Positions 2,502-25,390 are shown, counted from the first letter of the stretch. The stretch: DNA of 49,565 nucleotides from Minisyncoccota bacterium (GCA_043771685.1 JAYVGX010000032.1:1-49565), one strand, 5' to 3'. Notes: generated by a model not told the origin, from the sequence alone. Numbers and translations: made by a program.

Positions 2502-3566
2502 ATGAACGATTACACAGACAAATTCAACAAGCGAATTAGCACACCAGAGCCACATATTGTGGCTATTTTGGCTGAAATAGACGGTATAAGAGGTGAATTT
2601 AAATCTGGACTACGCATGACTCCACAGGCCATAACGAGCCTTAAAAAGTCAGTCCTGATAACATCTGCCGGAGCTTCAACTCGTATCGAGGGTTCAAAAC
2701 TTTCTGATGAAGAGGTCAAGAAAATCCTCAGCAATTTGTCTATCTCAAAATTCTCAGATCGAGATTCTCAAGAAGTGCAGGGTTACCTTGAGACATTACA
2801 AAATGTGTTTGATAGTTATCAAACACTACCACTTCGTGAAGGTGTAATCACATCACTCCACAACGAACTAATGAAGTATTCAGATAAAGACAAACTACAC
2901 AAAGGAAGTTACAAAAAACAAGAAAATCTCGTCGGTGTTGCCAATGAAAAAGGTGAAGTCACACAGGTAATATTTGAGACTACTCTTTCATGGCAGACAC
3001 CAAAAGAAATGACAGAAATTGTCGAGTATTCATTTGATGAACTTGAAAAGAATCATTTTCATCCATTACTTGTGATTGCAAATTTTCTCGTAGAATTTCT
3101 GAAAATCCATCCATTTCAAGACGGTAATGGCCGTATGTCACGAGTACTTACCAACATGCTTTTACTTCGATCTGGGTATCAGTTTGTAGAATATGTATCA
3201 CATGAGCAAATCATCGAACAACGAAAAGATGAATACTATTACGCACTTCGCAAATCTCAAGAATCATTCAAAACAGAAAATGACACCATTTCACCTTGGC
3301 TCAACTATTTTCTATCAGTAGTTAGAGAACAGGCAACCAAAGCGCTTGTGTATTTGCAGGAAGAAAAGTTCGAGGATACATTATCACCAAAGCAACTAGA
3401 AGTATGGAAGTACCTCGTTATTAATAATGAAGCAAGTCCCACACAGATATCAAAAGATACTGGCATTATTATTGCAACAGTGCGACAAGCATTACTTCGA
3501 CTAATGGAACTCGAAAAGATCAAGCGAGTCGGTCGTGGTCCGCAGACTAGATATGTTAAAATTTAA
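2502..3566 (+). CDS. fic: Fic family protein (AMPylase/NMP-transferase type) with N-terminal inhibitory motif and C-terminal winged-helix-like tail
   Basis: HPFQDGNGRMSR matches HxFx(D/E)GNGRxxR. STRIEG near the N-terminus matches the (S/T)xxxE(G/N) auto-inhibition motif. C-terminal ...ISKDTGIIIATVRQALLRLMELEKIKRVGRG resembles wHTH. Confidence 0.9.
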   Translation: MNDYTDKFNKRISTPEPHIVAILAEIDGIRGEFKSGLRMTPQAITSLKKSVLITSAGASTRIEGSKLSDEEVKKILSNLSISKFSDRDSQEVQGYLETLQNVFDSYQTLPLREGVITSLHNELMKYSDKDKLHKGSYKKQENLVGVANEKGEVTQVIFETTLSWQTPKEMTEIVEYSFDELEKNHFHPLLVIANFLVEFLKIHPFQDGNGRMSRVLTNMLLLRSGYQFVEYVSHEQIIEQRKDEYYYALRKSQESFKTENDTISPWLNYFLSVVREQATKALVYLQEEKFEDTLSPKQLEVWKYLVINNEASPTQISKDTGIIIATVRQALLRLMELEKIKRVGRGPQTRYVKI

Positions 3567-8443: not shown

Positions 8444-9424
8444 ATGGAAACAATTACCATAAAATGTGATAGATGTACTCAAGATCATTCATATAATATT
8501 TCTCAAAAAGATTTAGAGAGTGGGATGACTTTAAATATCGCATGTTTTAATATAAAAAGACTTCCCAAAATAACTAGTACTCGTATTGATTTTAGAAAGA
8601 ACGCACTAAGTTCAACCAAGGAAAATATAGATAGAATTTCTTATTCTCACGGCTCACAAAATGCTGATGAGAAAATAAAGCGCATGAATGAGGTGAACGA
8701 ACCGCGCATGTGGCTCATTTACGATTTCGATCAATATTTTGAAGAAATAATCAATACCTATATCATAGGGTCTTTTTATCCTACTGCAACCTCGTGTACA
8801 ACTCTTGCAGAAAGATTGGTAAATTTATTTATACTCAAGTTGAGAGATTTGTACGATAAATCAATCCTAGAAAATGACATGCAAAAATATGTGTATACTC
8901 GAGATCAAAGCTGGCAATCATATGATTCAAACATGAAAGTCTTGAAAGCATGGGGGTTGCTCACTGATACCCAAAAAGAGCTGTTCAAGGGCTTACGAGA
9001 TATACGAAATCGAGCTGTGCATTTTCATAATGAATTCGATGCAAAATCAGATGCTCTCACTGCTATAAAAACCCTACATAAGATACTTGATAGTTATTTC
9101 AGTACCTTTGTAAGGAAAGATGTTCTACGAGTATTTGAAATCCCCGGCGAGATATGGGTCAGAGAGGACAAGATTGATAATCCTTTTGTTAAAGTTTTTG
9201 TCTTGCCGTGCTCAAGCATGTTCGCTTCTTGTGGTGCTTATAATACAGAAAATATCTACCATGAGAATTCTGGTCTAATTGGTATTTTTGCCGAAGATGA
9301 GTTTATTAAACAGCGATTGGAATACAGTGATGGGCTCAAAGAAAATAGACCGGATTTGGAATACAAACCTGAATATAAAACTTTTGATTGGCAAAATATG
9401 GAAGTAAAATATCGAATTATTTAG
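8444..9424 (+). CDS. Hypothetical protein with a central HEPN-like (DUF4145-like) domain
   Basis: Helical segment YIIGSFYPTATSCTTLAERLVNLFILKL, followed by LKAWGLLTDTQKELFKGLRDIRNRAVHF. The latter contains R-x4-H (RNRAVH), the HEPN RNase signature. Confidence 0.5.
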   Translation: METITIKCDRCTQDHSYNISQKDLESGMTLNIACFNIKRLPKITSTRIDFRKNALSSTKENIDRISYSHGSQNADEKIKRMNEVNEPRMWLIYDFDQYFEEIINTYIIGSFYPTATSCTTLAERLVNLFILKLRDLYDKSILENDMQKYVYTRDQSWQSYDSNMKVLKAWGLLTDTQKELFKGLRDIRNRAVHFHNEFDAKSDALTAIKTLHKILDSYFSTFVRKDVLRVFEIPGEIWVREDKIDNPFVKVFVLPCSSMFASCGAYNTENIYHENSGLIGIFAEDEFIKQRLEYSDGLKENRPDLEYKPEYKTFDWQNMEVKYRII

Positions 9425-9460
9425 CTGGATAAAATAGTTGAAAAATGATAAATTATATAT

Positions 9461-11824
9461 ATGAAATTTGAACAACCTCCCAAAATTGAAACGGAAAGAC
9501 AAGAGCCTTCTGTTGAACAGGTCTCTTTTTCTGATCAAGAAAATAATATTAGTGAAGTGTTCAAACTTTGTCCAGAATTGGAAAGCATCGCTCTTGAAGG
9601 CGTTGGCATTGATGAATCTCTTGCAAATAAAATAGTCCGTTTATACAGAATCGAAAACAGAAACAAGAAAGTAGAGAAAAGCAAAGAAGGTGGAAATAAT
9701 GATAAATACATTGGCCAATGGTTTACTACCGATTTATCCTATGCGATTGATTACATTGAGAATACCTACAACAAAAATGAGTCAGGGATAAATTATGATG
9801 ACACTGTATTGCACTATACAGAGCTACCCGTAAAAGAAGCCTCTAAGTATCTAGTCTCAAAAGAAACAATCACAAGTGAAAAACTTGAAGCAGAGCCAGA
9901 TAATTTTCATATAGAGGATCGTTCAAATCTACAAACACTAGAGCTTGCGGATTTATTACATACTTTTAAGAAAGGTGGTATTATCCGAACAAAATTTGGT
10001 TTTGATAAAAAACATATTGAGCCACTTATTCTCGATCAAATCTCTGAGTTAGTACCAGCCGATGGAACATTTGATGATGTTGTAGCTTTTGACGAAAAAA
10101 GAAAAGAAGCTATTGAAGAATATGGAAAATATCTGGAAACTATATTTCCAGAAAGCAAGCTCAAAGAAATTGTATACCACGGTACGAATAGAAAATTTGA
10201 TAAATTTGAAAGACGTCACGGTTTAGATGACCTATCAGGTATCGAAGGTGTTGATGATTACTATTTCACAGACAGTAAAGAGCTTGCTCGATCCTTCGCA
10301 GAGAAATACAAAAAAGTATTGTATGCTATTTTCAAAAGCCACGAAAGTGGTAACGTTGACTGGTATTTTAAAAGGCAAGATACTGCGGGTGATTTTTCTG
10401 AATTTCAAGATTCAACAAAAGAGCTCTGGGAAGATATTCACAAGGAATGGAACTATATAGTTACCGAATCACATAAAAGTAGAGCGCTAGATGACATATT
10501 GCAAGATACTAACATTCAGTATTTTAGCAACAAGGAAGGATTCGGATTTAAGTTTGGAAAGATGCTGATGCCATATTATTTGATGAATGATTATGACTCA
10601 TACAAAGAGTATCCCAATGGAACAGTAATACCTGTCATATTGGATTTAAAAAAACCATACATCAAAGAAGGCGATAGAAATTCTATGGATGGTATCTTGT
10701 CTGAAGCAGGTTATAGGCACAAAAAAGAAGACAGTGAGATTGATGGCGGAATACAGCAAGATTCCAGTGAGAAAAACATTGTGGTTTTTAATCCAGAACA
10801 AATTCACGTTCTTGGTTCAGAATTTGATGTTGAAAAATTCAAAGAATTTGTTAGTAAAAATGAGTCCAAAAAAGACAGACAAAGTATTGAGGGGTTCTTG
10901 AAAGAAAACGGTATTGAAAAAGTTCCTCACATTAAAACCAATTTCTTCTTTAATCAACACGCAACTGCCGAAGACGGTCAAATGGTTGCGGATAGGTTGA
11001 AAGACAAAGATATATTTATTCAAGAAAATGCAGGCTGGGATGATGAGAGACTTTTGACTTGGCAAAAAGTAACGAGTGGTGAGTTTACCGCCGATCAAGC
11101 TATTGAACACGAAAAAGCACGTGGTAAAGCATTCTTTTGGACTGAGTACTACAAATCTATTTTTGAAAATATACACGGAACAAATAAAGAGGTGTTGCTC
11201 GTTGATATAAAAGATGATAGTGAATTATACAAAGAAATTTATGACCTGATGAAAACTGATGGCGTGTACTGGAATATACTCGATAGATCAAAAACCTACG
11301 ATGAAGTCATAGAACATATAGGCGATGCTTCACAATTAGAGTCACTTAGCCAAGAGGAACGAGAAAATGAGATATTGAAAAATACGAAACAGAATTTGCT
11401 TGAACTTCTCAAAAATAAACCTGAATTGCAAGACAAAGAAGAGTTGAATGTATTGTTCTCAATGGGATCATTCCATACACGGCTCTATCACGAGATGAAA
11501 AAAGATGGGAACGATGTTACTCGTGAGCATCAATCTATGCCCTATACGTTTTCGCCCCGAATGGAAGTAGAACGATTAGTGCATTTCAAAGGTAGAGAAG
11601 TGGCGGAATCATCTATGCCAAAAGTCCTTTTGTATTTACTACTTGGTAAAACTGGCGTTTTTCGACTCGACCAAATGAAGCACGAACAACAACATATTGT
11701 TATGAAGAAATTTAATACAGATGCTCAAATCAGAGAATTGTACGAAAGATACCAAAAATCTGAATCTGATGAGCAGTTTAGAAAAAAAATAAATGGCTGG
11801 ATAGCTGAACAGTACAGGAAGTAA
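9461..11824 (+). CDS. Large (787 aa) hypothetical protein with two tandem ART-like modules and an uncharacterised C-terminal half
   Basis: Module 1 is LYRIENRN...GQWFTTDLSYAIDY. Module 2 is VYHGTNRKFDKFE...DYYFTDSKELARSFAE...NIVVFNPEQIHVLG. The H/R...[FY]FT[TD]...A..[FY]A...E-like pattern recalls ADP-ribosyltransferase-fold modules of phage/conjugative polyvalent proteins. Confidence 0.55.
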   Translation: MKFEQPPKIETERQEPSVEQVSFSDQENNISEVFKLCPELESIALEGVGIDESLANKIVRLYRIENRNKKVEKSKEGGNNDKYIGQWFTTDLSYAIDYIENTYNKNESGINYDDTVLHYTELPVKEASKYLVSKETITSEKLEAEPDNFHIEDRSNLQTLELADLLHTFKKGGIIRTKFGFDKKHIEPLILDQISELVPADGTFDDVVAFDEKRKEAIEEYGKYLETIFPESKLKEIVYHGTNRKFDKFERRHGLDDLSGIEGVDDYYFTDSKELARSFAEKYKKVLYAIFKSHESGNVDWYFKRQDTAGDFSEFQDSTKELWEDIHKEWNYIVTESHKSRALDDILQDTNIQYFSNKEGFGFKFGKMLMPYYLMNDYDSYKEYPNGTVIPVILDLKKPYIKEGDRNSMDGILSEAGYRHKKEDSEIDGGIQQDSSEKNIVVFNPEQIHVLGSEFDVEKFKEFVSKNESKKDRQSIEGFLKENGIEKVPHIKTNFFFNQHATAEDGQMVADRLKDKDIFIQENAGWDDERLLTWQKVTSGEFTADQAIEHEKARGKAFFWTEYYKSIFENIHGTNKEVLLVDIKDDSELYKEIYDLMKTDGVYWNILDRSKTYDEVIEHIGDASQLESLSQEERENEILKNTKQNLLELLKNKPELQDKEELNVLFSMGSFHTRLYHEMKKDGNDVTREHQSMPYTFSPRMEVERLVHFKGREVAESSMPKVLLYLLLGKTGVFRLDQMKHEQQHIVMKKFNTDAQIRELYERYQKSESDEQFRKKINGWIAEQYRK

Positions 11825-11825
11825 G

Positions 11826-12107
11826 CTACTTCATACCACTCATACCCTTGAACGATTCGATCTCCATACAAATCTGCGTATGGAGATCTTTTGTTATTTC
11901 CTCATTTTTGAATTCAACTCGATTCTTCCAATTATCGACAGCAAGAAATAATCGCCAATGCGATCCTCGGAAATCATAGAGAGCGATCAGCGTGAACGAT
12001 CCGTCTAGCTTTTCGTGATACCACAAAGTGGTCTTGTCACCATCCCAAACATGCGCGTTTTTGCGCAGCATTTCAAATGGATCAAACTGATAATCATTTT
12101 CAATCAT
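11826..12107 (-). CDS. Small hypothetical protein (93 aa), convergent with the 787-aa gene
   Basis: ATG-initiated ORF. Its stop codon lies 1 nt from the stop of 9461..11824, and no hairpin separates them. Confidence 0.45.
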   Translation of the reverse strand: MIENDYQFDPFEMLRKNAHVWDGDKTTLWYHEKLDGSFTLIALYDFRGSHWRLFLAVDNWKNRVEFKNEEITKDLHTQICMEIESFKGMSGMK

Positions 12108-12205
12108 AGGTGTGTATGTTTTAGCATACTTTTTGAAATTGTCGTAATAATTGGGGTAGGGGATAGTGTGGGAGTTTGTCCCCTTTTATGCTTATAAATA
12201 TAGAC

Positions 12206-12234
12206 TTGCATTATTTATAATGTGGGAGTATAAT
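12206..12234 (+). promoter_or_regulatory. Sigma70-like promoter upstream of the integrase (TTGCAT-17-TATAAT)
   Basis: TTGCAT at 12206-12211, 17-nt spacer, TATAAT at 12229-12234. The spacer contains one TGTGGGAGT copy. Confidence 0.45.
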
Positions 12235-12460
12235 CTAAAAACCTGATGAATCTCTTAACAGTGCCATGGCAGGGGACTCAGGAACAGGTAAAATATTATT
12301 AGAAATAAGCCTCTGTCCCTTGTCAGGGATAGCCCACAGCAGGCATTTGATTCATATCAAAGCCTTCTTTCGTTCCGATAGTGTGGGAGTTTACGATGTT
12401 GTTCTCGGAAAACATTTCAAGAACCCCTCAAACAGGCTTTTAATCATCAATAACAAATTT

Positions 12461-13393
12461 ATGCTACTTAGAGAAGCAATCGAAAAATACTTGCTATGGA
12501 AAGGTGCCGAGACTAGAACAGCAGCAAAAGTCTACCGACCATTTCTAGAGCATTTCTATGATTACGTAGGTAACAAAGATACTCTGCAAATAACCCTTGA
12601 AGAGATATCGGCATTCCGAGCATCGTTGAAGTTAAAATACAACGATGGCAACATAGCCAACCATAACAACGTAATCAAAAACTTTTACAAATGGCTGGAA
12701 GCAAACCGTATCACAACAGTGCATCCATTCTTGATCCGTAACCCAAGGTTCCAGCCACCAGAGCGCCCAGTAGCAACGCCTGAAGAAGTAGAGAAAATGT
12801 GTGCAACCCTTAACCCGAATTCCTACGGAGATTTGATGCGACTCGTCGCGATCAAGTTGATGTGGGAGTCAATGATCCGTGTTAGTGAGCTTATAGAGCT
12901 AAATATTGATGCAATTGATCCGCAAAAGAATTTTGTGGAAATAGTAGGGAAGAAGAATTATAAAAAAAGATGGATCATGTGGTCGCCTGATACCCATCAA
13001 CTCCTACTCACATACATTGCCAAAAGAAAAATGTTAGCTCCTCATGAAGCCTTGTTCGCGCATGAGAGCGCCGGGGTCACTCAGCGAATGGCAACTAGAA
13101 GTATTGAACGGTGGATGAAGGTTGCGCGAGAAAAAGCAAAACTCACCCAAGATATTTCTTGCCACGCGTTGCGACATGGCGGTGCTCATGAACTGGTCAA
13201 GAAAGGTGCGAGTCTTAAATTCCTCGGGCTTATACTCGGTCACTCGGATTCAAATCCACGAGCGGGGATGCAATATCTACGATTCAGCAAAGAAGAATCA
13301 CTCGATGTCGTAGAGAAATTTGTGGGACTAAGATTCGACAGATTAGCACCAGAGCCTTTTGTTAGAACATATAATAACTACAGCATTGCATAG
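12461..13393 (+). CDS. int: Tyrosine recombinase/integrase (XerC/D-like size)
   Basis: N-terminal SAM-like core-binding domain (LREAIEKYLLWKG...). Catalytic elements are MIRVSEL (Arg), CHALRHGGAH (HxxR), GHSD and MQYLR (Tyr). The 12266 start would add a non-protein-like 65-aa extension. Confidence 0.85.
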   Translation: MLLREAIEKYLLWKGAETRTAAKVYRPFLEHFYDYVGNKDTLQITLEEISAFRASLKLKYNDGNIANHNNVIKNFYKWLEANRITTVHPFLIRNPRFQPPERPVATPEEVEKMCATLNPNSYGDLMRLVAIKLMWESMIRVSELIELNIDAIDPQKNFVEIVGKKNYKKRWIMWSPDTHQLLLTYIAKRKMLAPHEALFAHESAGVTQRMATRSIERWMKVAREKAKLTQDISCHALRHGGAHELVKKGASLKFLGLILGHSDSNPRAGMQYLRFSKEESLDVVEKFVGLRFDRLAPEPFVRTYNNYSIA

Positions 13394-13434
13394 TATGATT
13401 TGTAAATGTGGGAGTTTTGTGATAAATTGTATTA

Positions 13435-13650
13435 ATGAAAAGTACGAGCATTACGAAACCAAAGGGTGGTCGTGGCAAAGTCGAGATCCTACGAAATAAA
13501 GCCATTGTGACCCTATATGAGACCGATCCAAAGAGCTACAACACTAACACGTTGGGGAAGTTATTCAGCCGCGACAGGAAGACTATTCAGGGCATTATAG
13601 AGAGATTTGCACCTTCAAAGCAGAATACAGCCGAAATGAGCCGGTCCTAG
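13435..13650 (+). CDS. Small HTH protein (possible excisionase/regulator)
   Basis: NTNTLGKLFSRDRKTIQGIIERF is helix-turn-helix-like. It lies immediately downstream of int and is preceded by a TGTGGGAGT copy. Confidence 0.5.
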   Translation: MKSTSITKPKGGRGKVEILRNKAIVTLYETDPKSYNTNTLGKLFSRDRKTIQGIIERFAPSKQNTAEMSRS

Positions 13651-14410: not shown

Positions 14411-14803
14411 ATGGACATGCAAGAAATAGTAACCCGAGTAGCTTTTTGTAAGAAATGTTTTAAGAATGGTTCTCCAAAAAAAGGACAAAAAATAATGGTC
14501 CATGGATCTTCATCAAATTTATTTAAAATGATAGAAGCTTCAGATTACGGATATCCTGGTTTTACTCCCCATACTTTTGAAATTGTGAAATATTTAAGGG
14601 ACGAAAAACTCCTAGTTTCAAGTATTTGTGGAATTGAGGGGTGCGGTTCCTATTTTGTTTATGAGGTTATTAATCATAGACAACGTCATAGTTTTTTAAA
14701 ATTTATTGAAGAAAATTTAGAATTTGAAACTTTTACTTCAGAAAGGTGGAGTGCATTAATGTATTTATCTGAACATGACTTTGCGGAAATTTATAAAGTT
14801 TAA
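14411..14803 (+). CDS. Hypothetical protein with CxxC...CxxxxC cysteines
   Basis: CKKC at about aa 13-16 and CGIEGC at about aa 73-78. A strong terminator follows. Confidence 0.5.
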   Translation: MDMQEIVTRVAFCKKCFKNGSPKKGQKIMVHGSSSNLFKMIEASDYGYPGFTPHTFEIVKYLRDEKLLVSSICGIEGCGSYFVYEVINHRQRHSFLKFIEENLEFETFTSERWSALMYLSEHDFAEIYKV

Positions 14804-14810
14804 AAAACAA

Positions 14811-14843
14811 ATAGCCTATTACTTTTATAAGTAATAGGCTATT
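14811..14843. terminator. Bidirectional terminator hairpin
   Basis: ATAGCCTATTACTT-ttat-AAGTAATAGGCTAT, lying between convergent genes. Confidence 0.65.
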
Positions 14844-14856
14844 TATATTTTAGAAT

Positions 14857-16188
14857 TTAGCCTTGAACAAAAGTTAAAGCGATACCTTTTTTACTTGCAC
14901 GACCAGTACGGCCGATGCGGTGTACATAAGTATCGTATGTTTGAGGAATCTCGTAGTTTATAACATGTGTTACATCAGGTATGTCGAGTCCACGCGCTGC
15001 TACATCGGTTGCTACCAGGACGTTTAGTGTATCGTCTTTGAAGCTCGACAAAGTACGTTGACGGTCATTGTGTCGTTTATCACCATGGATAGAACCAGCA
15101 CGGAAACCACGTCTCTTTAATTCAACTGACAGTTTCTCGACTAGATGTTTTGTTTCAGCAAAAATAAGAACTTTTTTGAAATCAAGCTTTTTAGATAAAA
15201 GCTCTTCTAAGACATCCATCTTATCCACACCACGTTCTATGCGAACTATATCTTGTTCAACATTTTTTGATGTGTCTTGAGTTTTTACCATAATACGAAC
15301 TGGATCTTGGGAGAATCTTTCAATTAATTTCTCAATCGGTTTAGGAAGTGTCGCAGAGAAAAATAATCCTTGTCTGTCTTTAGCTGTTTTTTCAAGTAAA
15401 TATGTTATATCATCGATAAAACCCATGTCCAACATTCTGTCAGCTTCATCTAGTACAACAGATCGTGTATCAGATAAATCAATCTCGCCTTTTTTAACTA
15501 AATCCAAAAGTCTACCTGGAGTACCTATAACAAAGTTACATCCTTGGCGGAGTCTCTTTATTTGAGGAAAAATAGGTGCACCTCCGACACAAACTACAGC
15601 ATACATTTTCAATAAACGAGCAAAGTCGTTGAATTCTTTTTCAATTTGAATCGCTAGTTCACGTGTCGGAGCTATAATGATAACAGTTTCGTTTCTATCA
15701 TTTATAACTTTATTTATAAGAGGGATAAGAAATGCAGCTGTTTTACCAGTACCTGTATTGGCTATACCAAGTATGTCGCGACCTTCTAATGCACGTGGGA
15801 TGGCCTTGTCTTGAATCGGACTTGGGTAAATGTATTGTTTATTTGCAATAGCTTGTTTGAGCTTTTCGTCGATTTTAAAATCAGCAAAAGTATGAGTTGG
15901 TAAGTAGATCTCTTCTTTTTCTATAACAGTTGCGCGACTAATAAAACGTGATACATCTATGCGTTCAAATGAACCACCACGGCGATTACCACCTGAACGA
16001 TTACGATTGTTACCACCACTAAAACGTGCTGGTCCACGACTTCCTTGTCCAAAACTAGGACGAGAAGAACGTGAGCCTCCAGAAGAAGGTCTCGCTGAAG
16101 TAGAACTACGACGTGGTCCTGATTGTGTGGAAGATGCTCCACGTGAATAATTAGCTCCAGAGGAGCTTTTTGGTTTGTTGTTATACAT
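14857..16188 (-). CDS. DEAD-box ATP-dependent RNA helicase with an N-terminal Arg/Gly/Ser-rich extension
   Basis: Q-motif PSPIQ, AxTGTGKT, PTRELA, DEAD, SAT, ARGLDI and HRIGRTGRA. The first roughly 75 aa are RGG/RS low complexity. Confidence 0.93.
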   Translation of the reverse strand: MYNNKPKSSSGANYSRGASSTQSGPRRSSTSARPSSGGSRSSRPSFGQGSRGPARFSGGNNRNRSGGNRRGGSFERIDVSRFISRATVIEKEEIYLPTHTFADFKIDEKLKQAIANKQYIYPSPIQDKAIPRALEGRDILGIANTGTGKTAAFLIPLINKVINDRNETVIIIAPTRELAIQIEKEFNDFARLLKMYAVVCVGGAPIFPQIKRLRQGCNFVIGTPGRLLDLVKKGEIDLSDTRSVVLDEADRMLDMGFIDDITYLLEKTAKDRQGLFFSATLPKPIEKLIERFSQDPVRIMVKTQDTSKNVEQDIVRIERGVDKMDVLEELLSKKLDFKKVLIFAETKHLVEKLSVELKRRGFRAGSIHGDKRHNDRQRTLSSFKDDTLNVLVATDVAARGLDIPDVTHVINYEIPQTYDTYVHRIGRTGRASKKGIALTFVQG

Positions 16189-21745: not shown

Positions 21746-22159
21746 CTACTTAAACAATTGCATAAACTTCTCTTTAATCTCCTTAAAAACATTGTCGTTT
21801 ATATGGGCTACACGACGAATCATTCTTTTTGAGCTCATTAATCTTAATTGAGAAAGTATAACATAAGAAATTTTTTCCTCATAAACACCATTTTCATTTA
21901 AGATATTTAGAACTAATTTAAAATGAAATTTATTGTCTTTTTCTTTTGATGTCAAAGGAAAACCAAAGAACATGCCTTTATGAAATTTCCTAAAAACTAA
22001 AACTGGTCTTTCATATTTATCATTTTTACCATCTTCTTCAAAACCAACATTCTCTCCCAATGAACACCACCAAATCTCTTGATCACGAAACAAAACTTCT
22101 TTTTTAGAATTTTCAATACTAGTTTTTATTTTATGCCAGTTTTGATAATCTTTTACCAT
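21746..22159 (-). CDS. PemK/MazF-like (SH3-barrel toxin fold) protein
   Basis: W.KIK......(F)RDQEIWWCSLGENVGFEEDGKNDKYERPVLVF...GFPLTSK...ILSQLRLMSSKRM matches my memory of the roughly 140-aa PemK/MazF family. Confidence 0.55.
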   Translation of the reverse strand: MVKDYQNWHKIKTSIENSKKEVLFRDQEIWWCSLGENVGFEEDGKNDKYERPVLVFRKFHKGMFFGFPLTSKEKDNKFHFKLVLNILNENGVYEEKISYVILSQLRLMSSKRMIRRVAHINDNVFKEIKEKFMQLFK

Positions 22160-22174
22160 AATTATTTTATGTAT

Positions 22175-22570
22175 TTATTCACTTTTTATTAAAGCAAATA
22201 TTAGAAAAGCAGAAAACATACCTACTAAAACCCAAATAAATAAGTCATTGCTATTTGCTAAAATACAAAAACCTATAAATAATGCCAGGGGGACGTAAGT
22301 AACTATATATGTACTAAAAATTTGCCTTAAATTATTTTTAAATGGAATTTTTTCAATAATTCTATAGCTTACCGTACTAGAATATCCCATTGAATTTATA
22401 AGGTATGTATTTTTTTCTCTTTTTCCTTCTTTGATAACTCTCAAACATTTTCTTGGAAAAATTGGTAAGAGAAATAATACGAACCATTCAGTGGTAATAT
22501 AAGAATAGTTTACTGAGTTATAATCAGTTTTTCCATAATAAACATTTCCAATACCTTGAAATCTTGACAT
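22175..22570 (-). CDS. Hypothetical membrane protein (131 aa)
   Basis: Hydrophobic helices at WFVLFLLPIF and the C-terminal PLALFIGFCILA...VLVGMFSAFLIFALI. The start is 2 nt from the upstream gene. Confidence 0.5.
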   Translation of the reverse strand: MSRFQGIGNVYYGKTDYNSVNYSYITTEWFVLFLLPIFPRKCLRVIKEGKREKNTYLINSMGYSSTVSYRIIEKIPFKNNLRQIFSTYIVTYVPLALFIGFCILANSNDLFIWVLVGMFSAFLIFALIKSE

Positions 22571-24865: not shown

Positions 24866-25390
24866 ATGAATAAAAAACAAGATTTTTCAAAGAAAATCAT
24901 GAAAATACTATCAGGAAAGTCGGCGGTGGCTGTAAATGATATTACTGATAGCATAATAGAAGACGGTCAGACCCCTTATGCTATTACTCGCTCTATAAAG
25001 GGCCTACAAGACGCTGGTTTGATAGAAAAGATACATTCAGGTCAGAATAACTATGCACGCCTAACAACTGATGGAAAGAAAAAAATGCATAGTTTAAAGT
25101 TAGAAAATGAAAACACTCTTGTAAATACAAGTTGGGATAATCAATGGCGTATTATACTTTTAGACTTACCAGAGAGTCGCAAAAATGAACGTGAGTCACT
25201 TCGCTATTTGTTAAAAAAAGCCGGCTTTCTTTGTTTAAAGAATTCGGCTTGGATTTCCCCTTTTCCTCTTGAGTATTTATTTACAAATATCAAAAAAGAC
25301 CTAGGATTATCGACAGAGCTCGTAATAATCGTCACTTCACAAATAGATGAGATGACAGAGAAAGAATTAAGATTGATGTTTAATCATTAA
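24866..25390 (+). CDS. PaaX-like/wHTH transcriptional regulator
   Basis: The N-terminal wHTH is (ITRSIKGLQDAGLIEK). The C-terminal WDNQWRIILLDLPESRKNERESLRYLLKKAGFLCLKNSAWISPFP is the PaaX-type pattern. Confidence 0.6.
   Translation: MNKKQDFSKKIMKILSGKSAVAVNDITDSIIEDGQTPYAITRSIKGLQDAGLIEKIHSGQNNYARLTTDGKKKMHSLKLENENTLVNTSWDNQWRIILLDLPESRKNERESLRYLLKKAGFLCLKNSAWISPFPLEYLFTNIKKDLGLSTELVIIVTSQIDEMTEKELRLMFNH

Follow-up and report, generated by a model that had tools for sequence, protein, structure and literature searches.

The 49,565-nucleotide (nt) stretch of DNA analysed here (the window) contains, at positions 8444-12107, a region that we take, with somewhat better than even confidence, to be a variable cargo slot of a member of the candidate phyla radiation (CPR, Patescibacteria), lying beside a conserved module of a 93-amino-acid (aa) gene, an integrase and a small open reading frame (ORF), orf71, and holding two independent conflict genes, one for a single-protein HEPN RNase (gene 1) and one for a polyvalent-type multi-enzyme protein (gene 2). 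Gene 1 (8444..9424, + strand, 326 aa) and gene 2 (9461..11824, + strand, 787 aa) are separated by 36 nt, and gene 2 converges on the 93-aa ORF (11826..12107, - strand) with 1 nt between the two stop codons, as a preliminary description of the region had stated. The window is a low-GC (~35%) chromosome segment whose genes include those for ribosomal protein L9, DnaK/DnaJ and aspartate kinase; because the closest relatives of the genes studied come from metagenome-assembled genomes of Gottesmanbacteria, Paceibacteria, Saccharibacteria, Uhrbacteria and Sungbacteria, the organism is a CPR member. Gene order was identical in 7/7 public contigs encoding the identical 787-aa protein.

Co-occurrence of the three genes was assessed by tblastn with the gene 1, 93-aa and integrase proteins against the loci of gene 2 homologues (9 genome loci, 24 metagenome loci and an earlier locus set) and by reciprocal searches. 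Neither a gene 1 homologue nor a 93-aa gene was found at any gene 2-homologue locus, and the counts of co-occurrence were 0 of >30 for gene 2-homologue loci, 0/7 for gene 1-type loci and 0/7 for 93-aa loci. A three-gene operon or system was considered and discarded on these surveys, in which the context of each gene revealed no locus with either of the others. The preliminary description had combined all three into a toxin/immunity or defence module and had itself held that an absence of co-occurrence outside this genome would speak against it; the genes never co-occur elsewhere, and the three-gene system is therefore rejected. Its broader idea of conflict cargo next to an integrase stands, supported by the variable position beside the integrase and by relatives in mobile and defence-island contexts.

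The 93-aa ORF is a genuine gene under strong conservation: 11 homologues share ~60% identity with it, and the alignment has 33 invariant columns. Its 3' neighbour is metK in L019 and L032 (locus designations of this study), an 88-aa ORF followed by metK in L031, a helix-turn-helix (HTH) gene and a transposase in L017, and GNAT and ABC transporter genes in L015/L016, and a TrpR-like gene is also among its neighbours elsewhere. On the 5' side in L031, the integrase (86% identical) and orf71 recur, as do the TGTGGGAGT motifs in matching positions, and the 1.8 kb of 93-aa gene, integrase and orf71 shows 75% DNA identity to the window; L032 retains the same motifs beside the 93-aa gene up to the contig end, where the locus is cut. 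Because the 3' neighbour changes and the 5' integrase, orf71 and motifs are conserved in L031, the 93-aa gene is, as judged by these sequence comparisons, part of a conserved 93aa-integrase-orf71 module and no immunity partner of gene 2; the partnership proposed in the preliminary description fails on the unrelated genes (metK, HTH) on which the ORF converges elsewhere. The segment past the 3' end of the 93-aa gene is a variable slot, and the window's slot holds genes 1 and 2. The 93-aa gene usually lies a few genes from metK (L015-L019, L031, L032), a gene that the window lacks, and the variable stretch beside it elsewhere contains restriction-modification or methylase genes, PD-(D/E)XK and nucleotidyltransferase genes, a diversity-generating retroelement (DGR) reverse transcriptase with bAvd, and AAA ATPases. 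In those genomes the stretch looks like a defence-island hotspot.

The integrase module (12162..13417, + strand) comprises five TGTGGGAGT motifs and a tyrosine recombinase identified by Pfam, and is followed by orf71 (13435-13650); an integrase next to the region had been noted before, and a tyrosine recombinase does adjoin it. The recombinase gene is listed at 12266-13393 (+ strand, 375 aa), and its start is probably Met66 (nt 12461) instead of 12266, because the Pfam domains begin there and the L031 homologue starts at the equivalent Met. Copies of the TGTGGGAGT 9-mer lie at 12167, 12221, 12382, 12861 and 13407 on the + strand (5 against 0.16 expected); four of the five are preceded by -10-like hexamers (GATAGT, TATAAT, GTAAAT), with a start at 12461 the copy at 12382 falls in the integrase promoter region, and L031 and L032 have the motif in corresponding places around the homologous integrase. 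The motif may be an element-specific promoter, operator or recombinase-binding site. The preliminary description was right that it is real, and wrong to attach it to the promoter of the 93-aa ORF, since all copies are on the + strand and point with the integrase and orf71.

Gene 1 has 22 homologues at 50-65% identity, nearly all in CPR genomes, among 5.8 billion clusters searched. Its features, all on the + strand, are a putative zinc-binding CxxC..H..C N-terminus (C8, C11, H15 and C34, conserved in the alignment), a DUF4145-like HEPN core found by profile matches (aa ~144-225, nt 8873-9118), an Rx4H motif (R188-N-R-A-V-H193, 9005..9022) that is the predicted HEPN RNase active site, and a conserved, Cys-rich C-terminal domain (FEIPGEIWV...PFVKAFVLPCC...ASCG...YHE in the 21-homologue alignment). 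The segment LRDIRNRAVHF, from which a HEPN signature had been read earlier, is present, and R188 and H193 (IRNRAVH) are invariant across the 21 aligned homologues. Pfam DUF4145 (PF13643) matches the Rx4H region with E=1.7e-3 and 18.8 bits (cut-off 23.1) and is also matched by 10/21 homologues (E<0.1), with HEPN_Swt1 matched by 5/21; PADLOC DUF3644 and HEC-08 match aa 173-206; and NCBIfam PRK11448 (HsdR), in its N-terminal region, matches aa 144-225. Three libraries thus converge on one segment holding R188 and H193, and these several weak matches at one place uphold the DUF4145-like assignment made earlier. PADLOC returned for gene 1 just Drt9, DUF3644 and HEC-08, at E up to 1, and no named system, and a PDB profile search gave no match. 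This is moderate evidence, at the level of sequence, that gene 1 is a divergent DUF4145-type HEPN RNase.

The contexts of gene 1 homologues are varied. In L011 the homologue stands alone beside an OLD-family ATPase/TOPRIM gene, a large serine recombinase and an ArdC/MPTase-PolyVal protein; in L013 it comes after a methylase and ResIII/RE_endonuc pair resembling a restriction-modification system; in L014 it is surrounded by small phage-like ORFs; and in L008-L010 it lies amid housekeeping genes. No gene 1 homologue was found on viral contigs. More distant homologues (26-35% identity) occur outside CPR on Bradyrhizobium and Bacillus megaplasmids: one on Bradyrhizobium pBs1S1a (L057:5839-6813) is annotated as hypothetical and adjoins IS66, and one on a plasmid of Bacillus sp. 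F19 (L058:6001-6363) is a match without annotation.

By analogy of architecture, the closest characterised counterpart of gene 1 is RAZR (PD-T7-4, ring-activated zinc-finger RNase), a single-gene abortive-infection RNase that joins a zinc ribbon at its N-terminus to a DUF4145 HEPN domain and is activated by assembly around phage ring proteins (PMC13017515). Both are single genes in accessory or mobile contexts, and both proteins run from a zinc-binding module at the N-terminus through a linker to a divergent HEPN domain of the DUF4145 type with a conserved Arg...His pair, the zinc-binding and HEPN assignments being putative in gene 1. Gene 1 differs in being ~100 aa longer, with the extra conserved Cys-rich C-terminal domain, in having CxxC..H..C in place of the Cys4 ligands of RAZR (its metal binding being putative), and in its Rx4H spacing against R146...H154. 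The PADLOC release used probably includes PD-T7-4, and there is no sequence-level match between the two (no PADLOC named system, no PDB match). DUF4145 HEPN domains are also associated with restriction-modification systems (Anantharaman et al. 2013, PMC3710099). Gene 1 resembles these in its weak Pfam, NCBIfam (HsdR N-terminal region) and PADLOC matches on the Rx4H helix region, and differs from them in scoring below the curated cut-off, in standing alone instead of being fused to HsdR, and in its extra N- and C-terminal domains.

The architecture of gene 2 as a whole matches nothing in the profile and structure libraries searched. The protein has 12 close homologues among the 5.8 billion clusters, and genome and metagenome scans added ~30 more distant loci. 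The family proteins range from 285 to 787 aa and begin with a conserved, hydrophilic N-terminal leader of ~45 aa (9461..9601, + strand, defined by alignment), which is common to all architectural variants (including L023, L024, L026, L027 and L029) except a nucleotidyltransferase (NTase)-fused protein in L028 that keeps just the C-terminal part of the leader, internally. After the leader comes an LYR/GxWF module (as in the window), a GNAT domain or nothing; the L028 protein (L028:225-1700, 491 aa) has an N-terminal Pol-beta-type NTase motif (GS...DVD) ahead of its ADP-ribosyltransferase (ART) domain. A linker (YLKTIFPESK in the family), one of at least 7 divergent ART versions and a QIHILGS..DIEKFKEF segment follow, and the proteins then finish with a ~313-aa C-terminal domain or an unrelated tail, or stop there. 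Modules are swapped between conserved linkers. In P0010 and P0012, unrelated C-terminal tails replace the Ere/TraB-like domain.

In the window, the linker (YLETIFPESK) and an ART-PolyVal domain with a ~130-aa insert span 10106..10870 (+ strand), followed after the ART domain by the conserved motif in the form QIHVLGS..D.EKFKEF (+ strand). Pfam ART-PolyVal (PF18760) matches aa 237-448 with 31.6 bits against a cut-off of 31.2 (E=3.4e-7) and is matched by 8/12 homologues (best 7.6e-12; P0051 scores 62.6 bits). The candidate H-Y-D triad is H240 (VYHGT), Y268 (YYFTD) and D428 (EIDGG), conserved in the alignment; D428 and G241 are at least 90% conserved, and P0011 has K instead of H. ART-PolyVal proteins have an active site of H in strand 1, Y in strand 2 and D in strand 5 (Iyer et al. 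2017, PMC5512222). The H-Y-E-type ART suggested in the preliminary description (YHGT...DYYFTD...VVFNPEQI) falls within this Pfam match, and together the profile matches and residues support the presence of an H-Y-type ART (ART-PolyVal) domain in gene 2.

The module preceding it, module 1 (LYR...GxWF; 9602..10105, aa 48-215, + strand), has invariant L-Y-R-x-E, G-x-W-F, Y and K in the alignment and matched nothing in Pfam or PDB, ART included; its AlphaFold2 pLDDT (predicted local distance difference test) was ~30, making the model unusable. It had been described earlier as an R-type ART similar to the second module. That first-module assignment found no profile or structural backing, and the claimed similarity of the two modules dissolved on profile-profile comparison (hhalign probability 0.1-0.3%). 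The S/T after WF and the acidic motif of module 1 are not conserved in L029, and with the lack of a profile or PDB match and the hhalign result this led us to set aside module 1 as an R-S-E ADP-ribosyltransferase on sequence grounds.

The last part of gene 2 is a C-terminal alpha/beta domain of ~313 aa (10883..11821, aa 475-787, + strand), a predicted hydrolase by AlphaFold2 and Foldseek. A profile search of 1.84 billion representatives with this domain gave 791 proteins at E<1e-3 and 468 at E<1e-10, and the resulting family (~791 clusters at 50% identity) consists mostly of stand-alone proteins of 320-400 aa. The domain was covered by a Pfam family in none of the 10 homologues sampled (most of them stand-alone), a Pfam scan of 100 members gave weak recurrent matches in at most 4 members each (DUF5694 in 4/100, best E 0.046), and PDB profile searches gave spurious low-complexity matches alone. 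An AlphaFold2 model of the domain from a 100-sequence alignment reached pLDDT 96.1 and pTM (predicted template modelling score) 0.92. With Foldseek, the best PDB matches of this model were HopBA1 (5t09, probability 0.92) and BcR135 (3b55, 0.66), the latter an erythromycin-esterase-like protein, and the best BFVD match was a TraB family protein (probability 0.98, E=0.025); the full-length gene 2 model gave the same weak top matches as the domain alone.

Across 100 diverse members of the C-terminal-domain family, H500, E522, R634 and G669 are invariant and H672 and E635 are at least 90% conserved; in the model, H500, H672 and E522 each lie after a beta-strand. The catalytic residues of EreC are H50, E78, R261 and H289, and EreC, BcR135, ChaN and HopBA1 share one fold group (PMC7979712). 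The His-Glu-Arg-His order of the C-terminal domain is that of the EreC set, as compared in sequence, and the two His and the Glu of the model, each after a beta-strand, fit an active site at the C-terminal sheet edge. TraB/Tiki proteins we take to belong with the Ere/ChaN/HopBA1 group, members of which are the best fold matches in two libraries; the Gly of the TraB/Tiki GxxH motif is absent from the first motif of the C-terminal domain. From model and residues together, the domain would be a hydrolase distantly related to the Ere/ChaN/HopBA1/TraB fold group. One family member, P0098, has an FHA domain, and another (L020:5001-6101) lies amid pentose-phosphate genes.

An extended -10-like element, TGATAAATT (9446..9454, + strand), ends 6 nt before the gene 2 ATG, and TGnTAAAAT occurs at the same 6-nt distance in seven diverse loci (L001, L005, L021, L023, L026, L028 and L029). 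This conservation suggests that gene 2 is served by a promoter of its own and that its mRNA is probably leaderless, and on that argument gene 2 would be expressed independently of gene 1. At its other end, a terminator-like hairpin (11-bp stem and T-run; 11859..11888, + strand) begins 35 nt past the gene 2 stop, inside the 3' coding end of the 93-aa ORF, so that the earlier statement that the convergent genes have no terminator between them has to be withdrawn.

Relatives of gene 2 are repeatedly found next to tRNA and recombinase genes. Short leader-ART genes begin 7-11 nt after the 3' ends of tRNA-Val or tRNA-Asn (L025, L027), and the leader-ART gene of L023 has a tRNA-Leu gene and an HNH endonuclease gene ~1 kb upstream; gene 2 homologues lie beside large serine recombinases in L001/L022, L026, L044, L056 and the ERZ1426829 contig. 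The tRNA genes are at L025:398-484, L027:7891-7971, L026:11492-11567 and L023:6920-7004, and the serine recombinase gene of L026 overlaps tRNA-Val at its 3' end. Phage-like neighbours of gene 2 homologues occur in L029 and L021 only, and in L029 they are a ParB-methylase and an HTH protein. As part of the reading given at the outset, and with the same degree of confidence, the gene 2 family moves as a one-gene cassette that inserts by tRNA genes or serine/tyrosine recombinases.

Among known systems, gene 2 is best compared with the polyvalent proteins of phages and conjugative elements, in which GNAT and NTase are the usual partners of ART-PolyVal (PMC5512222). It shares with these proteins (ART-PolyVal/Tox-ART-HYD2) the ART family PF18760, residues of the H-Y-D type, the combination of several unrelated enzymatic domains, sister proteins with GNAT and Pol-beta NTase, and the link to mobile DNA. 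It differs in that the proteins of its family are small (285-787 aa) and are encoded by a one-gene cassette in CPR chromosomes, in that its leader, module 1 and C-terminal domain have no Pfam match, and in that the window lacks a MuF, MPTase, ArdC, virion or type IV secretion system (T4SS) context, no virion or T4SS genes being present in it.

Some relatives of gene 2 are bracketed by inverted repeats (L001-L007, L022, L026 and L033; cassettes at L001:1732-4497 and L026:7587-9673). These repeats measure 240-307 nt, with 97-99% complementarity inside a locus and 72-93% identity from species to species, have internal hairpins and enclose a segment of 1.6-2.2 kb; a large serine recombinase adjoins the cassette in L001 and L026, and many contigs end at the repeats. 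In L004 and L001, which come from different samples and are 99.9-100% identical, the same racemase/DnaB flank is joined to opposite cassette ends, and L001 and L026 have opposite gene orientation relative to the recombinase. These arrangements suggest whole-gene inversion in the relatives, with the proviso that an assembler can place such a segment either way. Invertible segments with adjacent serine recombinases are known, for example the G segment of phage Mu and the C segment of P1. The cassettes resemble these in having an inverted-repeat-flanked segment, an adjacent serine recombinase and both orientations assembled, and differ in carrying a single complete gene with its own promoter and a large serine recombinase instead of a small invertase. 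For the window copy of gene 2 none of these features apply: no long repeats, inverted or direct, were found to flank the window genes (the sole pair has 32-nt arms with 72% complementarity), and blastn of the relatives' inverted-repeat element against the window gave no match.

We offer one wider proposal tentatively, and as a single whole. Leader-ART genes, so far seen just in CPR, could be one-gene, module-exchanging effector cassettes that insert beside tRNAs, one subfamily being flipped by a large serine recombinase between the 240-307-nt repeats; the modules exchanged would be ART-PolyVal variants, GNAT, NTase, the LYR module and the Ere/TraB-like hydrolase, and the C-terminal domain would define a large, hitherto unrecognised enzyme family (~800 clusters at 50% identity). 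If true, this would mean that episymbiotic bacteria subject an ADP-ribosylating effector to whole-gene phase variation, and a real cassette inversion would add whole-gene effector inversion to the known forms of phase variation.

For the enzymatic activities, the targets and the defence-or-invader role of each gene in the window we infer the following. By analogy with RAZR, gene 1 would be idle until its non-catalytic domains sense an invader and, once activated, would cleave RNA and so abort infection, acting alone. Gene 2 would use its own extended -10 promoter and yield a leaderless mRNA; its ART-PolyVal domain (H-Y-D) is predicted to ADP-ribosylate a protein target in an NAD+-dependent manner, coupled to the C-terminal H-E-R-H hydrolase-like domain, with a role in conflict between genomes. 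Gene 2 may serve the host cell, the mobile cassette or export against the bacterial host of the CPR cell. The lack of a conserved immunity gene argues against gene 2 being a classical self-toxic toxin.

Several observations weigh against a slot with two independent conflict genes as we describe it. The 36-nt same-strand gap still permits co-transcription of genes 1 and 2; the DUF4145 score of gene 1 is below the Pfam cut-off; the ART-PolyVal match of the window protein is 0.4 bits above its cut-off, with a large insert and a low-confidence full-length AlphaFold2 model (pLDDT <50 in the ART region); and the fold matches of the C-terminal domain, at E 0.025-0.23 and TM 0.27-0.39, include none that is significant, and neither Pfam nor PDB gave a sequence match to add to them. 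The C-terminal domain has stand-alone homologues that lie amid housekeeping genes, PADLOC matched neither gene 1 nor gene 2 to a named system, and no relative of gene 2 was found in phage, plasmid and IMG/VR collections, which leaves the idea of a classical polyvalent protein delivered by virion or T4SS unsupported.

Three other explanations have been put to the same evidence. A single toxin/immunity or anti-phage system made up of gene 1, gene 2 and the 93-aa ORF, the last serving as immunity protein or regulator, would explain the tight packing (gaps of 36 nt from gene 1 to gene 2 and of 1 nt at the convergent stops), the arrangement kept in all seven contigs with the identical large protein and the presence of effector-type domains; we hold it to be highly improbable, given that no locus with a homologue of one gene holds either of the others, that the 93-aa gene shares synteny with the integrase in L031, occurs truncated next to the TGTGGGAGT motifs in L032 and otherwise converges on unrelated genes, and that gene 2 has its own conserved promoter-like element. 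Most gene 2 family members moreover have no small neighbouring ORF, and those called in L002 and L003 sit inside an inverted-repeat arm. What survives of the preliminary description as a whole is the kinds of gene and their position as cargo, and what does not is the first ART module, the missing terminator, the role of the small ORF and the three-gene system.

A second explanation takes the 787-aa protein for an exported effector of the polymorphic-toxin type, directed against the host bacterium or competitors, with the leader as trafficking signal and the swappable modules as payload. Gottesmanbacteria, Paceibacteria and Saccharibacteria do share the conserved leader, with the enzymatic modules being exchanged between linkers, the C-terminal domain finds its best PDB fold match in a type III effector, HopBA1, and an immunity gene would be unnecessary if the producer has no target. 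Yet neither the gene 2 protein nor its homologues have a signal peptide or known trafficking domain, secretion-system genes and a conserved immunity-like neighbour are lacking nearby, and the variable modules are internal, not C-terminal; we regard export in this form as unlikely. The third explanation, on which both genes are ordinary housekeeping or regulatory CPR enzymes (an endogenous ADP-ribosylation regulator and an RNA-processing HEPN protein) that adjoin the integrase by chance, accords with a GC content of 0.34-0.35 for the region's genes against 0.346 for the window (we found no compositional foreignness of the region relative to the window), with the homologues of gene 1 and of the C-terminal domain that lie amid housekeeping genes and with the stable gene order in seven contigs. 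It seems to us quite improbable in view of the patchy distribution (just 12 close homologues of gene 2 and 22 of gene 1 among 5.8 billion clusters) and of the module shuffling, tRNA-adjacent insertion, recombinase association and defence-island neighbours that mark accessory conflict genes.

CPR/Patescibacteria are uncultivated episymbionts whose means of resisting phages and manipulating hosts are little known. Besides correcting an attractive three-gene reading, the locus offers a RAZR-like HEPN protein with a putative zinc ribbon in a phylum distant from E. coli, a compact polyvalent-type candidate ADP-ribosyltransferase with clear candidate catalytic residues, and a confidently modelled domain family (~800 clusters) with an H-E-R-H signature and no Pfam match.

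Synteny gave no island boundaries, the major facilitator superfamily (MFS) neighbour of the region having no close relative in GTDB representative genomes. Further conflict-type genes lie elsewhere in the window, at 2502-3566, 21746-22570 and 24866-25390, and comprise a Fic/DOC protein with a C-terminal TrmB-like HTH, a PemK/MazF toxin and a PaaX-like protein with a Cas2-like middle domain; a 131-aa ORF upstream of the PemK/MazF toxin may be its antitoxin. A near-perfect palindrome with 31-nt arms (14794-14859), located between orf130 and a convergent DEAD-box helicase gene, scores as a terminator on both strands.

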